The notes beneath the pieces were generated by a model. It worked only from the letters and a program-made list of their open reading frames with translations. It did no database searches and had not been told where the DNA came from. This document shows, piece by piece, positions 2,047-20,038 of a stretch of DNA of 36,786 nt. The position numbers were made by a program, and so were the translations under genes. Every line of letters starts with the position of its first letter. The stretch's first letter is position 1. Origin of the DNA: Alphaproteobacteria bacterium (lineage in GTDB: Bacteria > Pseudomonadota > Alphaproteobacteria > CAAHEQ01 > UBA3637); contig JAZUQR010000024.1 of the NCBI GenBank assembly GCA_045605805.1, positions 1 to 36,786 on the forward strand, given 5' to 3'.

Positions 2047-2123
<77 letters not shown>

Positions 2124-15411: not shown

Positions 15412-17151
15412 ATGAATTTGCTGAATCTGATAACCATTAAAGTGTCACGGGCTTTTGAACAGGCTGGCTTTGCCTCAGACAATGTGTTAGTGCGTGCCGC
15501 TGACAGACCAGATTTGGCGGATTATCAATCAAACGGGGCATTGGCGTTGGCTAAGTCATTGCATCAAAATCCACGAGAGGTGGCCGAAAAAATTATACAG
15601 GAATTGAAAAAAGATGATTTCTTTGCAGATGTTTCTGTGGCGGGCCCCGGTTTTATCAATATGAAAATTAAAGATGAAGAATTGGTGCGCTTATCGGGTG
15701 AAATCCTGACTGAGGCAAAGGCGGGTTTTGAGCGAAAAGAAAATCCAAAAACTGTTGTGCTAGATTATTGTGGGCCCAATGTTGGCAAGGTTTTGCATGT
15801 GGGGCATTTGCGTTCTGGCAACATTGGTGATGCGGTGCGCCGTATTATGCAGTTTGCTGGTGACAAGACGATTGGTGATGCCCATTTGGGCGATTGGGGG
15901 CGGCCTATGGGGTTGGTTTTAACAGAATTACAGCATCGTTGGCCGGATATGCCTTATTTTCAGCCAAATTATTCGGGCGATGAAGGGTACATCATTCCTT
16001 TTTCTTTGGCAGATGTGACTGAGGCTTATCCGATTGCTTCGGCCAAAGCAAAGGAAGACGAAGCCTATATGAATCAGGCCAAAAACTATACTCGTGAGTT
16101 GCAACAAGGCAATAAAGGCTTGCGTGATTTGTGGGAAAAGTTTGTGGCTTTAACAAAGGCGGATGCCCAAGGATTGATGGAAAACTTGAATGTTTATTTG
16201 GATTTATGGTGGGGCGAAAGTACGGTCAATAATCGGTGTAATGAGATGATTGAACGCCTTAAAAAATCGGGCGATATGGTGTTGGATGACGGGGCTTGGA
16301 TTGTGCGATTGGATGAAAAAACACCTCCGGCTATTTTGGTGAATTCGGCCGGCGCAACCATGTATGCCGCTTCGGATTTGGCCACGATAGAGGCTCGTAT
16401 GGATGCGTTTAAGCCAGATGTGATGATGTATTTTACAGATGCCCGTCAATCATTGCATTTTGATCAGATTTTTAAGGTTGCCAGAAAAATAGGGATTGTG
16501 CCTGAAACCGTTTGTATGGAATATCAAGGCTTTGGTTCGGTGAATGGGGAAGATAACAAGCCTTATAAAACGCGTGACGGGGGTGTGCCGACTTTGCGTT
16601 CTATTATTGATTCGGCTGTGGCAAAGGCTCGTTCCAAAATGGAAAATGGTGATATGGGGCGGGATTTATCGGATGCCGAAAAAGATGAGATTTCTCAAAT
16701 TGTTGGTGTGGCCGCTTTGAAGTTTATGGATTTGATGAACGACAAAGTGAAAAACTATGTCTTTGATGAAGAACGGATGATTAGTACAGAGGGTAAGACA
16801 GGGCCGTATTTGCTGTATGCAATGGTGCGGATGAAGTCTGTTTTGGAAAAAATTGGTTTGCCCCAAAATGACACAATTCAGTTGTCAACACCGGTGGAAA
16901 GAAAGTTGTTGCTGAACCTATATACTTTTCCAGAAAATGTTCAAATTGCCTATGACAATCGGGCACCTCATGTGATTGCGGATTATTTGTATAAGTTGTG
17001 TCAAGATTTCAATTTATTCTATCACGATTGCCCAATGAAAGAGGCTGAGGCTGAGATTAAAAACAGTCGTTTGAACTTGGTTCAATATACCTTGAAAGTG
17101 GCCTTATTATGCGCAGATATGTTGGGCCTTAAAGTGCCGGACAAGATGTAG
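15412..17151 (+). CDS. argS: Arginine--tRNA ligase
   Basis: PNVGKVLHVGHLRS, GDWG, YKTRDG, G.TGPYL.Y motifs and terminal Met; start after AAGGAG RBS. Confidence 0.96.
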   Translation: MNLLNLITIKVSRAFEQAGFASDNVLVRAADRPDLADYQSNGALALAKSLHQNPREVAEKIIQELKKDDFFADVSVAGPGFINMKIKDEELVRLSGEILTEAKAGFERKENPKTVVLDYCGPNVGKVLHVGHLRSGNIGDAVRRIMQFAGDKTIGDAHLGDWGRPMGLVLTELQHRWPDMPYFQPNYSGDEGYIIPFSLADVTEAYPIASAKAKEDEAYMNQAKNYTRELQQGNKGLRDLWEKFVALTKADAQGLMENLNVYLDLWWGESTVNNRCNEMIERLKKSGDMVLDDGAWIVRLDEKTPPAILVNSAGATMYAASDLATIEARMDAFKPDVMMYFTDARQSLHFDQIFKVARKIGIVPETVCMEYQGFGSVNGEDNKPYKTRDGGVPTLRSIIDSAVAKARSKMENGDMGRDLSDAEKDEISQIVGVAALKFMDLMNDKVKNYVFDEERMISTEGKTGPYLLYAMVRMKSVLEKIGLPQNDTIQLSTPVERKLLLNLYTFPENVQIAYDNRAPHVIADYLYKLCQDFNLFYHDCPMKEAEAEIKNSRLNLVQYTLKVALLCADMLGLKVPDKM

Positions 17152-17611
17152 GTTCGCTTGGCGGTTGTATCAGGTGGATGACTTGACATTTTTTTTGAAG
17201 GGCGTACTGTAAACTGCGGTATGCCCCTCCGAAAGAATAGGGGATATAGCCAATTATGAATTGACTGCGGCTGATGACCCATTCGTTGCGTTTGATGATT
17301 TTGAAACGGAATGGGATTTTGTTTAATTCCATGGGATAGAGAAAACTTGAAAAAGCAATCTGTGTGTTATGCAAATCATTTTCATATGACAAGACATAAC
17401 AGATATTCAAATGATATTGTGGAAAGTCGTGTTTGAATTGCATGGCAATTTGGCTTGACACGATTTCAAAATTGCCGTTATTTCCCACATAAAATGTATT
17501 GACTTTATGTTTTTCTACCAATTCTGTCATAATTTGTCGGATACGGTTGCTCAATTCGTTTTTTGATAGCAACAGTTCATGGTGACCGATAAAAGCACAG
17601 GATTTTCTCAT
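17129..17611 (-). CDS. SLOG-superfamily protein (YspA/DUF1273-like)
   Basis: CAFIGH N-terminus, G..G.FE, RNEWVI..S and GGAY..L.YA motifs; GAAGGA RBS; overlaps the argS 3' end convergently by 23 nt. Confidence 0.75.
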   Translation of the reverse strand: MRKSCAFIGHHELLLSKNELSNRIRQIMTELVEKHKVNTFYVGNNGNFEIVSSQIAMQFKHDFPQYHLNICYVLSYENDLHNTQIAFSSFLYPMELNKIPFRFKIIKRNEWVISRSQFIIGYIPYSFGGAYRSLQYALQKKCQVIHLIQPPSEPTSCPAL

Positions 17612-17636
17612 TTGATTTTATTTCCTTCAAGTCTTA

Positions 17637-17667
17637 AAAGAGAAAACCCACTTCTCAAAAAGTGGGT
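17637..17667 (-). terminator. Intrinsic terminator ending RNA-B
   Basis: ACCCACTTT-TTGA-GAAGTGGGT followed by TTTCTCTTTT. Confidence 0.8.
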
Positions 17668-17865
17668 GGATGTTAGAAACTATTCACATCAAGCAAGATA
17701 GTCCTGCCTATTCAGGCAAAAACCCTATTCGGCAGGCATCCACCCCTATAACAGGTAGATGCCCGACAAAGAAAATAATACACCTTTCGTACGAAAGGAT
17801 ATAAAATTCGTTTGCCCTTGATGTGAAAAGGTTTCTACACCCTTTGTTTGGGTGGGCCCCCAAAC
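17640..17865 (-). ncRNA. Candidate structured RNA 'B' (~225 nt), family unrecognised
   Basis: Own promoter; 5' hairpin GTTTGGG/CCCAAAC; closing stem 17817-17842 pairs with 17668-17693; three internal hairpins; terminator. Confidence 0.65.
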
Positions 17866-17871
17866 AAAAAG

Positions 17872-17900
17872 AGTATAGCAAATCAAAAAATGAAATGCAA
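17872..17900 (-). promoter_or_regulatory. sigma70 promoter for RNA-B
   Basis: TTGCAT-17 nt-TATACT with an extended -10 TG. Confidence 0.7.
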
Positions 17901-17940
17901 TAAAAAAAACGGAAGCCGAATTTTCTCCTTTGTTAAAAAT

Positions 17941-17965
17941 TAAAACCACCTGAAAATCAGGTGGT
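17941..17965 (-). terminator. Intrinsic terminator ending RNA-A
   Basis: ACCACCTGA-TTT-TCAGGTGGT followed by TTTAATTTTT. Confidence 0.8.
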
Positions 17966-18220
17966 CGGAGAGTTCGTAAATCAAAACATAATGCAAATGA
18001 TCCCTGTGGTCTTTAAGATTACGCCCCCGAAAGGGCGCAACCCTTGAACATACACCACAAGCTCCCCGACCATAAGTCAAGGGTGGAGTTGAAATGGGTA
18101 TTTACTTACAAGAAGAAAACACACCATTTCGGGTAGGGTGTTCAAACTACCCCATTATGTTTGAGCTTACGAGGCTCCGATACCTTATTCAGGCACTGTG
18201 GACAAGGTTTCGCCTTATCC
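17942..18220 (-). ncRNA. Candidate structured RNA 'A' (~280 nt), family unrecognised
   Basis: Own promoter; two 5' hairpins; closing stem 18153-18180 pairs with 17965-17993; four internal arms; potential pseudoknot; G-U pairs form only on the - strand. Confidence 0.7.
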
Positions 18221-18227
18221 GTTTCTT

Positions 18228-18256
18228 ATTTTATGATATCTTATTTTGTTTGTCAA
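18228..18256 (-). promoter_or_regulatory. sigma70 promoter for RNA-A
   Basis: TTGACA-17 nt-TAAAAT. Confidence 0.8.
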
Positions 18257-18280
18257 GCAATAATTTATAAAATAACCTTC

Positions 18281-18318
18281 AAAAAAAAACGGAAGCCGTG
18301 TGACTTCCGTTTTCTTTT
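18281..18318 (-). terminator. rpsA intrinsic terminator
   Basis: AAAACGGAAGTC-ACAC-GGCTTCCG followed by T9. Confidence 0.9.
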
Positions 18319-18331
18319 AAGACAGGCAGAT

Positions 18332-20038
18332 TTATTCTGCGTCTTTTTTGGCTTTCTTGGCTTTCTTTTCCAAGGCTGCGCCCAAGATATCGCCCAAAGA
18401 GGCACCTGAGCTTGTAGAGCCATATTCTTCCAAAGCACGTTTTTCATCATCAATTTCACGAGCTTTGATAGACAAGTTCACTTTGTGGGCTTTGTTATCC
18501 ACAGAAGTGATTTTGGCATCCACTTTTTCACCAATGGCAAAACGTTCTGTTTTTTGTTCGGAACGTTCTTTGGCCAAGTCTGTGCGTTTGATATAGCCTT
18601 TCACACCATTGACATCAACTTCAATGCCGTTTTCTTCAATAGCGGAGACAACAGCGGTGACCACTGCACCCTTCTTGATGCCTTCCATAGAACCGGCTGT
18701 TGGGTCTTCTGTCAATTGTTTGATGCCCAAAGAAATGCGTTCTTTTTCAACATCAATGTCCAAGATTTTGGCTGTGACAGACATACCTTTTTTATAGTCT
18801 TTGATGGCTTCTTCGCTTGCTTTATCCCAAGACAAATCAGAGCTGTGAATCATGCCGTCCAAGTCTTGTGTTAAAGACATAAAGACACCAAATTCAATTA
18901 CATTCTTGATTTCGCCTTCAACGATATCGCCTACTTTGTGTTCAGCAGCAAACTTTTCCCAAGGATTTTCTTGTAATTGTTTGATGCCCAAAGAAATGCG
19001 GCGTTTTGTTTCATCAACTTCCAAAACAACCACTTCAACTTCTTGACCCAAAGCAACAATTTTGTTTGGATGTGTGTTTTTCTTTGTCCAGCTCATTTCT
19101 GATACATGGACCAAGCCTTCAACGCCATCGCCTAAATCAACAAAGGCACCGTAATCTGTGAGGTTGCTGATTTTTCCTGTCAATTTATCGCCCACATGGA
19201 ATTTGTCTTGAACACCAGCCCAAGGATCGGCTTCCATTTGTTTCAAGCCCAAAGAAATGCGGCCGGTTTCTTGGTTGAATTTGATAATTTGGACTTTAAT
19301 TGTTTGTCCAATTGTCAAGATTTCTTGCGGGTTGTTGATGCGCTTCCAGCTCATATCTGTGACATGCAACAAGCCGTCTAATCCACCCAAATCAATGAAT
19401 GCACCATAATCTGTGACATTTTTAACGGTACCTTCAACCACTTGACCTTCGGACATAGTTTTGATGATTTCAGATGTTTGTTCTGCTCTGGCTTCTTCCA
19501 AAACAGCACGACGAGAGACAACAATGTTGCCACGTGCTTTATCCATTTTCAAAATAGCAAATGGTTGTTCAACGCCCATCAATGGGGAAATATCACGAAT
19601 TGGACGAATGTCAATTTGGCTGCCAGGTAAGAAGGCTGTTGCGCCTTTCAAATCAACCGTAAAGCCACCTTTGACACGGCCAAAGATTGTACCGTTCACA
19701 TGTTCGCCTTTTGTCATGGCAACTTCCAAATCGCCCCATGCTTCTTCACGACGAGCTTTTTCACGAGACAAAACGGCATTGCCTTCACGATCTTCATAAC
19801 GTTCAATGAAGACTTCAACCACATCACCCACATTTACAGCTTGAACGCCAAATTCGGAAAGAGGGATGCGACCTTCGGATTTTAAGCCCACATCAACGAT
19901 AACTTCGTCATCATCAATGCGTGTCACTGTTCCAGAAACGGTTTTGCCTTGTAAAGCAGAGCCTGTTCCCATGTATTCATCTAATAATGCACCAAAATCT
20001 TCTGTCAATTCCGGTGTGTTTTGTTTTTTATTTGTCAT
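18332..20038 (-). CDS. rpsA: 30S ribosomal protein S1
   Basis: DVGLKSEG and repeated S1 domains (YGAF.DL, GL.HV..MSW, RISLG.KQ). Confidence 0.98.
   Translation of the reverse strand: MTNKKQNTPELTEDFGALLDEYMGTGSALQGKTVSGTVTRIDDDEVIVDVGLKSEGRIPLSEFGVQAVNVGDVVEVFIERYEDREGNAVLSREKARREEAWGDLEVAMTKGEHVNGTIFGRVKGGFTVDLKGATAFLPGSQIDIRPIRDISPLMGVEQPFAILKMDKARGNIVVSRRAVLEEARAEQTSEIIKTMSEGQVVEGTVKNVTDYGAFIDLGGLDGLLHVTDMSWKRINNPQEILTIGQTIKVQIIKFNQETGRISLGLKQMEADPWAGVQDKFHVGDKLTGKISNLTDYGAFVDLGDGVEGLVHVSEMSWTKKNTHPNKIVALGQEVEVVVLEVDETKRRISLGIKQLQENPWEKFAAEHKVGDIVEGEIKNVIEFGVFMSLTQDLDGMIHSSDLSWDKASEEAIKDYKKGMSVTAKILDIDVEKERISLGIKQLTEDPTAGSMEGIKKGAVVTAVVSAIEENGIEVDVNGVKGYIKRTDLAKERSEQKTERFAIGEKVDAKITSVDNKAHKVNLSIKAREIDDEKRALEEYGSTSSGASLGDILGAALEKKAKKAKKDAE

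Follow-up and report, generated by a model that had tools for sequence, protein, structure and literature searches.

We report that RNA-A, encoded on the minus strand of a 36,786-nucleotide (nt) stretch of alphaproteobacterial DNA (the window; all coordinates are those of the whole stretch, and its genome is labelled G000), is a genuine, strongly structured non-coding RNA of about 280 bases. Judged by sequence comparison, it is one copy of a large, multi-copy and mostly undescribed family of leader RNAs in Alphaproteobacteria. We propose, with a probability of roughly 0.6, that the members of this family are cis-acting leaders of the attenuator type and that a pseudoknotted junction represents their ON state.

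RNA-A lies downstream of rpsA (ribosomal protein S1, with six S1 domains; 18332-20038, minus strand) and of the rpsA terminator (18320-18279, minus strand), and is preceded by a promoter, TTGACA (18256-18251), a 17-nt spacer and TAAAAT (18233-18228), that matches the consensus at 11 of 12 positions. Homologues in relatives carry TTGnnn-N17-TAnnnT at an equal distance from the first hairpin, as read by eye. Transcription is expected to start at about 18221 and to run to 17940, giving a minus-strand transcript of about 280 nt that ends at an intrinsic terminator, GACCACCUGA-UUU-UCAGGUGGUU (17966-17944; 10 pairs, five of them G-C), with a U run to 17936. A first-pass annotation of the window had placed a structured RNA at 17942-18220, a span that agrees with this promoter-to-terminator unit, and had drawn it as a closing stem (18180-18153 with 17993-17965) around four arms: GGGTAG/CTACCC (18152-18147/18136-18131), GAAATGG/CCATTTC (18130-18124/18097-18091), CCTTGAC/GTCGGGG (18082-18076/18070-18064) and CTTGTGGT/ACCACAGG (18061-18054/18010-18003), with a loop pairing between TTGAACA (18145-18139) and TGTTCAA (18050-18044). 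All of the quoted strings were found at the quoted minus-strand positions. The folding energy of RNA-A in RNAfold was -118.7 kcal/mol, compared with -77.1 +/- 5.4 for 200 dinucleotide shuffles (z = -7.75), and none of the shuffles was as good; the minimum of the full-length RNA approximates the nested multi-arm fold, with the terminator intact. Because the strings were verified and RNAfold reproduced the nested fold at this z value, the structure is real and far beyond chance. The general claim of a highly structured, pseudoknotted non-coding RNA was therefore borne out by this z value and by covariation of pseudoknots other than the one proposed, and a riboswitch-like regulatory role is consistent with the anatomy described below.

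Covariation among homologues supports a further predicted fold that the first-pass annotation had not seen: a three-way junction, formed by GGUCGGGGAG:CUCUCCGACC, the P5 arm and a small hairpin, that two loop-to-tail pseudoknots would lock onto a 5' hairpin. On the minus strand, the RNA begins with two hairpins present in the RNAfold minimum, 5' hairpin 1 (GGAUAAGG/CCUUGUCC, 18220-18200, kept with differing letters in the related locus L002) and 5' hairpin 2 (GUGCCU/AGGUAU, 18196-18180). Hairpin 1, defined by covariation, comprises strand a (GAGC, 18177-18174), a C, loop b (UCGUAA, 18172-18167) and strand a' (GCUC, 18166-18163), and leads into tail c (AAACAUAAUG, 18162-18153). Beyond a variable arm region (18152-18091) lies the 'mid' hairpin, recognized in RNAfold and by comparison of types, in which CUCC-A-CCCUUGAC (18088-18076) is separated by a loop from the strand that we call mid, GGUCGGGGAG (18071-18062). 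The P5 arm (18061-18003), again defined by covariation, is closed by CUUGUGGU:ACCACAGG (18061-18054/18010-18003), contains a nearly invariant internal loop, GUAUGUUCA (18053-18045)/AAAG (18014-18011), whose letters are invariant in 48 sequences, and ends in a distal helix capped by a UUCG-type loop. Hairpin 2, also defined by covariation, comprises d (AUCA, 18001-17998), UUUG, loop c' (CAUUAUGUUU, 17993-17984), which pairs with tail c, and d' (UGAU, 17983-17980); it is followed by tail b' (UUACGA, 17979-17974), A17973 and e' (CUCUCCGACC, 17972-17963), which pairs with mid. The design is reciprocal, as the loop of each hairpin pairs with the 3' tail of the other (b:b' and c:c').

A script that parsed 134 distinct elements for the geometry of a:a' and b:b' found all four a:a' and all six b:b' pairs in 110 of them, with b' one base before e'; the 134 elements show more than 20 b/b' letter pairs and at least nine types of a/a' pair. 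The arrangement that defines the leader family, a(4)-1..3 nt-b(6)-a'(4) and b'(6)-1 base-e', is found in RNA-A as GAGC-C-UCGUAA-GCUC and UUACGA-A-CUCUCCGACC. Tail c, which is 6-11 nt long and stands right after a', is complementary to c' in the members listed despite differing letters and lengths. In an alignment of 48 sequences, 95.6% of the cells of the three-way junction (mid:e', P5, P5a and d:d') are paired, compared with 80.7% after shuffling, and double changes occupy 207 cells compared with 60, a result equalled by 0 of 500 shuffles; changes on both sides were seen at 8/8 pairs of P5 and 4/4 pairs of d:d'. When a:a', b:b' and one arm stem were added for 29 full-length sequences of the GC-rich form, the pseudoknotted fold was paired in 97.3% of cells (85.0% shuffled) with 143 double-change cells (41 shuffled), and again no shuffle among 500 was as good; b:b' was paired in 100% of its cells, five of its six pairs being compensatory. 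The mid:e' helix is 99.8% paired, with variation that is almost wholly wobble-compatible and on the e' side, the mid letters having been fixed by the search pattern, so that compensatory change in mid is visible solely in other types. The 3' domain folded alone adopts the junction (-49.6 kcal/mol, z = -5.75), and when the strand upstream of mid and the terminator are added, the minimum remains the junction and the terminator is broken.

These data bear directly on the fold of the first-pass annotation, a single nested five-way junction with a 7-base-pair (bp) loop-loop pseudoknot (UUGAACA:UGUUCAA) that would serve as a ribozyme, aptamer or ribonucleoprotein scaffold. Part of it has held up: the nested junction is the RNAfold minimum, its fourth arm covaries strongly in homologues, arms 1-3 recur in relatives, and within its closing stem UCGUAA:UUACGA and AAACAUAAUG:CAUUAUGUUU covary strongly. 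However, two folds are conserved and the nested junction is just one of them; it lacks a:a', d:d' and mid:e', which covary, and UCAA:UUGA and CGGAG:CUCCG of the closing stem are not the best-supported partners, as GAGC:GCUC, AUCA:UGAU and GGUCGGGGAG:CUCUCCGACC covary instead. The long-range contact itself is exact in the window and is kept as 6 bp plus a G-U pair in the same-genus copies L002-L007 and L022, and L012, a single case read by eye, has a UGGAUA loop with UGUCCA as its match, but the complementarity was not kept among homologues in general. UGAACA lies 45-75 nt upstream of GGUCGGGG in just 11 of 66 fetched loci with the P5 loop UAUGUUCA, nine of which are close relatives of the window copy or duplicates of them, and in a scan for exact complements UGGACA was found 15-75 nt upstream in 0 of 81 loci with the P5 loop UAUGUCCA. 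The P5 letters GUAUGUYCA are invariant in the 48 aligned members whether the partner is present or not, and the 7-mer of the contact is frequent, with 26 occurrences on the two strands of the window. The loop letters also serve a local H-type pseudoknot, read by eye, in which ACACC (18141-18137) pairs with GGUGU (18125-18121), and equivalent knots with other letters occur elsewhere (CCACC:GGUGG in L041, GGUGCUG:CAGCACC in L054 and UGGUGG:CCACC in L038, all by eye). We therefore rejected the loop-loop contact as a feature of the family, whose conserved pseudoknots are b:b', c:c' and the local H-type knot. The variable arm of RNA-A combines this knot on GGGUAG:CUACCC with GAAAUGG:CCAUUUC (18130-18124/18097-18091), which shares two bases with GGUGU and is retained with other letters in L010 (AAAAGGU:ACCUUUU); among members, the arm after c is either the same kind of knot or a plain hairpin, as read by eye. 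Nothing that we found points to a ribozyme, and no ribozyme family was matched. Taken as a whole, the single nested fold with its long-range contact is very improbable as the functional structure of RNA-A.

The strand mid has a second predicted partner, also conserved and exclusive of e': the upstream strand, which together with mid makes up the third arm of the first-pass annotation. The triplet of upstream strand, mid and e' reads CCCUUGAC/GGUCGGGGAG/CUCUCCGACC in RNA-A. The types of element cannot be aligned column for column, and the joint change of mid with both partners was read by eye; it was seen in L021 (CACCCUGAC/GGUCGGGGUG/CACCCCGAUC), in RNA-B, the next element of the window (CAUCUACC/GGGUGGAUG/CAUCCACCC), in L163 on contig 10 of G000 (CUCCAACC/GGUUGGAAG/CUUCCAACC), in L165 and in L166 of genome G054 (AUCUCCCGAUC/GACCGGGAGAU/CUCCCGGUC). 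In addition, e' and the 5' strand of the terminator overlap by the last 3-4 bases of e' in RNA-A, RNA-B and L166; in RNA-A these are GACC, the last four bases of e' and the first four of the terminator, and the overlapping letters are ACCC in RNA-B and GGUC in L166.

On this basis, we propose a switch in elements ordered as promoter, 5' hairpins, hairpin 1 with tail c, variable arm, mid hairpin, P5, hairpin 2 with tail b', e', terminator, ribosome-binding site (RBS) and open reading frame (ORF). In the OFF fold, mid would pair with the upstream strand, and this mid hairpin, acting as an anti-antiterminator, would leave e' free, so that the terminator forms and transcription stops. In the ON fold, mid:e' would close the three-way junction with P5 and hairpin 2, an antiterminator that would remove GACC from the terminator stem and would be tied to the 5' part of the RNA through the reciprocal pairings b:b' and c:c'. 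The logic would be that of a 1:2 / 2:3 / 3:4 attenuator carried by three strands, and its input could be a ligand, a protein or folding kinetics; the assignment of the ON fold, and the setting of read-through into the downstream gene by the switch, are what we infer from this anatomy. Known attenuators and terminator riboswitches (the trp leader, T-box, PyrR/LicT targets) likewise have three consecutive strands with exclusive pairings, a last strand shared with an intrinsic terminator and a regulated ORF directly after. In contrast to them, the RNA-A family has no conserved leader peptide and matches no T-box or riboswitch family, a whole arm and a hairpin lie between its strands 2 and 3, and the role of antiterminator would fall to a three-way junction that two pseudoknots hold to the 5' end. 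Leader-peptide attenuation was considered and rejected: L002 shares a 16-codon frame that runs from AUG at 18127 to the UGA of CCUUGAC, but in L005 it lies out of frame and GC-rich members lack it, as read by eye. A small ORF from the invariant AUG of GUAUGUYCA differs in frame and stop between L038 and L054 (by eye).

The genes that follow the elements are consistent with an attenuator-type leader. In 23 of the 27 rows compiled for relatives, e' is followed within 60 nt by the start of an ORF of at least 70 amino acids (aa) or of one that runs off the contig, and the element stands upstream of a same-strand gene in all six plasmid contexts with annotated records. The cargo includes an outer-membrane beta-barrel protein (77 bits), an autotransporter (97 bits), lipoproteins, pilin-like proteins with an N_methyl motif just below the cut-off, regulators of the XRE, AraC and MarR types, traM, and a small ORF followed by an acyl-homoserine lactone (AHL) synthase gene; judged by N-terminal sequences, glycosyltransferase-like, methyltransferase-like (L096 and L102) and recombinase-like ORFs also occur. 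GEMM riboswitches, which bind cyclic di-GMP (c-di-GMP), control surface-protein and regulator genes of such kinds. GEMM-I and GEMM-II resemble the RNA-A family solely in this kind of cargo (pilin-like, outer-membrane, autotransporter and lipoprotein genes, and regulators); they show no match to RNA-A in sequence or structure, and differ in size and architecture. All five carrier genomes tested have GGDEF and RelA/SpoT genes, which therefore do not discriminate. In G054, one locus (L158, G054:C18:19000-24500) contains a PAS-GGDEF gene (601-1953), then a leader (junction at 2207-2322) and two autotransporter-like genes that both start with MKLS(Q/K)SA(S/A)GILSARYR; a GGDEF gene beside the element is an anecdote only, and a second-messenger input is possible.

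The window copy departs from this pattern. The rpsA-RNA arrangement is shared with L002 and L003, and the synteny ends just past the RBS. In both of these relatives, the arrangement runs on past this RBS into a gene for a 198-aa beta-barrel protein (OMP_b-brl in L002, 77 bits), behind which the rpsA terminator recurs, complete in L002. Compared with L002, the window has on the minus strand a cargo-junction remnant, AAGGAG (17930-17925) without a start codon and then CGGCUUCCGUUUUUUUU (17918-17902), which is the 3' half of the rpsA terminator (18298-18282), and no ORF follows directly on the same strand. The downstream ORF was probably deleted here; with its loss, RNA-A would be an orphan, able to make solely a short terminated RNA, and it appears to be a member of the leader family that lost its cargo. 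The terminator copies lie at 1413-1437 and 2406-2430 in L002 and at 18281-18298 and 17902-17918 in the window; the cassette of promoter, RNA and ORF has an rpsA terminator hairpin on either side, and the letters of the two hairpins match within a genome and differ between genomes. These flanking hairpins could reflect insertion at, or duplication of, the terminator hairpin, and hairpin-targeted mobility is a lead because relatives of sRNA-Xcc1 have been reported in integron cassettes.

sRNA-Xcc1 (RF02221) is the sole Rfam family to which the elements show a likeness, and this likeness is weak. With Rfam 15 at the gathering score, the only match in the whole window was a tRNA gene (2047-2120, plus strand, 64.8 bits), and 20 homologous loci matched no family. 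At E<=10, a search over 17500-18400 returned no relevant family among transfer-messenger RNA, RNase P, SRP, 6S, T-box, riboswitches and ribozymes, which upholds the earlier exclusion of the first four, and no row for RF02221. RNA-A thus falls short of the RF02221 cut-off of 53 bits; in G000 the model hits just two other sites, at 33-34 bits, and homologues of RNA-A score 20-24 bits. The Rhizobium copy L091 has sRNA-Xcc1 (20.7 bits) as its sole Rfam match at E<=10, aligned helix for helix. RNA-A also contains a junction of the RF02221 type, with a closing helix of 9-10 bp, two hairpins and a 6-7-nt joining strand, as judged from covariation in the 48 sequences, the minimum of the isolated domain and alignment to the model consensus. 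Three sites (G054 C6, G206 C6 and G206 C11) are matched both by RF02221 and by R1, our covariance model of the 3' domain. Moreover, the 5' module (a, b, a', c) recurs in three true members of RF02221, which score 66-76 bits; in each it is complementary to the joining strand and the hairpin loop of the same RNA, and in two, L167 and L168, an RBS and ATG stand close behind. By Rfam's criterion, then, RNA-A is not a member of sRNA-Xcc1 but a divergent, extended relative. The two are alike in their G/C-rich closing helix, first hairpin with an A-rich internal loop, short second hairpin, 6-7-nt joining strand and RCC, and both are multi-copy and linked to mobile DNA; they differ in that RNA-A bears extra arms and the GGUCGGGGAG/GUAUGUYCA signature and measures about 280 nt in all, whereas the RF02221 family covers the 87-nt junction alone and is filed as a small RNA (sRNA) gene, not as a leader. 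Literature searches (full text for the conserved strings, and keywords), which did not extend to the 2011 sRNA-Xcc1 paper or to supplements, yielded no paper that describes the subfamily or the 5' module.

Several points weigh against an attenuator-type leader. sRNA-Xcc1, first found in Xanthomonas campestris, has been treated as a trans-acting sRNA. In Xcc 8004, the sole strain for which this is known, it accumulates as a discrete 88-nt RNA whose mapped ends match the junction domain (PMC2996969). The overlap between e' and the terminator is just 1-2 bases in L163 and L164, and GC-rich members have no obvious terminator after e'; control there would therefore act on translation or otherwise. 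RNAfold cannot score pseudoknots, and its nested minimum is not comparable in energy with the pseudoknotted fold. In members with long stems, c:c' and d:d' may exclude each other sterically, and the ON fold as one structure is a model. The variable arm has no ligand pocket conserved across types, and the invariant letters of GUAUGUYCA/AAAG and GGUCGGGGAG could be a candidate pocket or a protein site. Finally, the intact RNA kept after cargo loss could mean that it has a function of its own.

Some of these observations suit a stand-alone, trans-acting sRNA, in which the functional species would be either the whole terminated RNA, about 280 nt long, or a junction fragment of about 110 nt released by processing, and the downstream genes would be neighbours reached by leak-through. 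RNA-A has its own promoter and a strong terminator and has stayed intact without cargo, its 3' domain folds stably by itself, and the 88-nt sRNA-Xcc1 species (PMC2996969) would correspond to such a fragment. Yet a same-strand ORF stands right after the element in the 23 of 27 rows mentioned above, with its RBS 10-15 nt past the terminator, the six annotated plasmid contexts all have a gene downstream, and the short gap before these ORFs shows no separate promoter; the possible seeds b' and c' are paired in cis and differ between copies. We regard a stand-alone sRNA as unlikely. A hok-like fold-back gate offers another explanation for the conserved long-range pairings between the 5' and 3' parts: b:b' and c:c' would lock the full-length leader in an inert form, and RNase processing or slow refolding, not a ligand, would release expression. 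A preprint places a relative in front of the toxin gene symE in integron cassettes of Xanthomonas (bioRxiv 10.1101/2025.06.18.660453), the cargo often consists of membrane or surface proteins and regulators, and the discrete sRNA-Xcc1 piece (PMC2996969) would fit processing. Against such gating, no processing sites are known, the terminator overlap favours transcriptional control, and much of the cargo, such as the XRE, AraC and MarR regulators, is not obviously toxic; we consider it improbable. An attenuator-type leader remains our preferred reading of the RNA-A family.

The genome of the window contains further members of the same design. RNA-B (17640-17865, minus strand), directly downstream of RNA-A, belongs to the same architectural superfamily and bears cargo. 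It has a promoter (TTGCAT-17-TATACT), a first hairpin, AGGG-UG-UAGAAA-CCUU with tail c UUCACAUCAAG, the mid hairpin given above, a P5 arm (CCUGCC/GGCAGG) with a GAAUA/GAAUA loop, CUAU-c'-AUAG, b' UUUCUA, and an e' that overlaps the terminator (17667-17646); an RBS and a 160-aa ORF (17129-17611) without a Pfam match follow. RNA-B was detected by neither the R1 nor the RF02221 model. The two RF02221 sites at 33-34 bits are L163 (567-649, that is, G000:C10:126266-126348, minus strand) and L164 (472-554, G000:C30:33771-33853, plus strand); both have a promoter, the 5' module, the switch and a terminator, and each precedes a lipoprotein-like ORF with a signal peptide ending in Cys, as read by eye. 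With RNA-A, RNA-B, L163 and L164, this 1.2-Mb genome therefore holds at least four members. A lone hairpin with the letters of the mid hairpin, ACUCCCCGA-UUUUUG-GGUCGGGGAGU, was also noted on the minus strand of G000:C10 near oriented position 131995, where the rest of the element is absent.

Beyond this genome, blastn found full-length copies of RNA-A in seven genomes of the same genus and its 3' half in many more, at up to 13 copies per genome. Within the family of the window, R1 matched 51 of 80 genomes; the copy number ranged from 0 to 18, and G000, which has exactly one copy of the RNA-A subtype, gave a single match. In a sample of the class with one genome per family, R1 matched 26 of 151 genomes when the unpublished genome G115 is included and 25 of 150 without it, and among 151 genomes of a phylum sample RF02221 scored above its cut-off in 24. 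A two-block pattern search of a species collection recovered at least 120 stretches, mostly from Alphaproteobacteria and also from Acidobacteriaceae; the matches listed include Rhizobium, Shinella, Rickettsia, Celeribacter, Sphingomonads, Micavibrio and gut metagenome-assembled genomes labelled 'Azospirillum'. Judged by which genomes share the AT-rich form, the 1.21-Mb genome of the window very probably comes from a small alphaproteobacterium of gut type. The GC-rich form occurs on 214 plasmid records, 173 of which are typed as conjugative. A phage origin was rejected, as 50,697 phage records gave just two and one weak matches in two scans.

Some further features of individual carriers were observed. 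G013, a 1.1-Mb genome of the same genus, has 18 matches to the junction model, several of them at contig ends (C21:10-101, C84:82-173 and C70:77-166), so that the assembly is probably broken at these repeats. The cargo ORFs read in G013 (L008 and L024) are just 20-25 aa long or cut off, and in its sister genomes pilin-like ORFs with GRSMVEMLGVLAI follow the element (L009, L011 and L025). Many GC-rich members (L032, L038, L044, L054, L084, L089, L091, L094, L109 and others) have an extra hairpin, GCGG-GGGCGCA-CCGC, 30-70 nt past e'; this hairpin, with the loop GGGRCGYA, lies between the junction and the start codon, and its carriers are Alphaproteobacteria and Acidobacteria. A pairing of this downstream loop (GGGGCGCA) with the loop of the first hairpin was inconsistent across L032, L038, L054 and L089, as read by eye, and was dropped. 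The RBS of the cargo in GC-rich members is often GGGGAG, which resembles an internal GGGGAG.

In summary, for the window alone the modest conclusion is that RNA-A would be a relic copy without cargo beside the cargo-bearing RNA-B. A much broader generalization, which we put forward as speculation and consider unlikely, is that sRNA-Xcc1-like RNAs, including the GGUCGGGGAG/GUAUGUYCA subfamily, might be very widespread, unrecognized cis-acting switches of Proteobacteria and Acidobacteria rather than trans-acting sRNAs, and that their double-pseudoknotted three-way junction might sense a global signal, for example c-di-GMP, to turn on genes for surface proteins (pilins, autotransporters, porins and lipoproteins), regulators, and conjugation and quorum sensing, many of them on mobile DNA. 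If the leader reading is right, sRNA-Xcc1, which is named but poorly understood, would be the visible tip of a large superfamily of leader RNAs with an unusual architecture that combines reciprocal loop-to-tail pseudoknots with a three-strand switch, and that stands before genes for surface proteins and regulators and before genes of conjugative plasmids such as traM. The family, which is missed by current annotation pipelines, would then be a candidate for a new riboswitch or attenuation mechanism.

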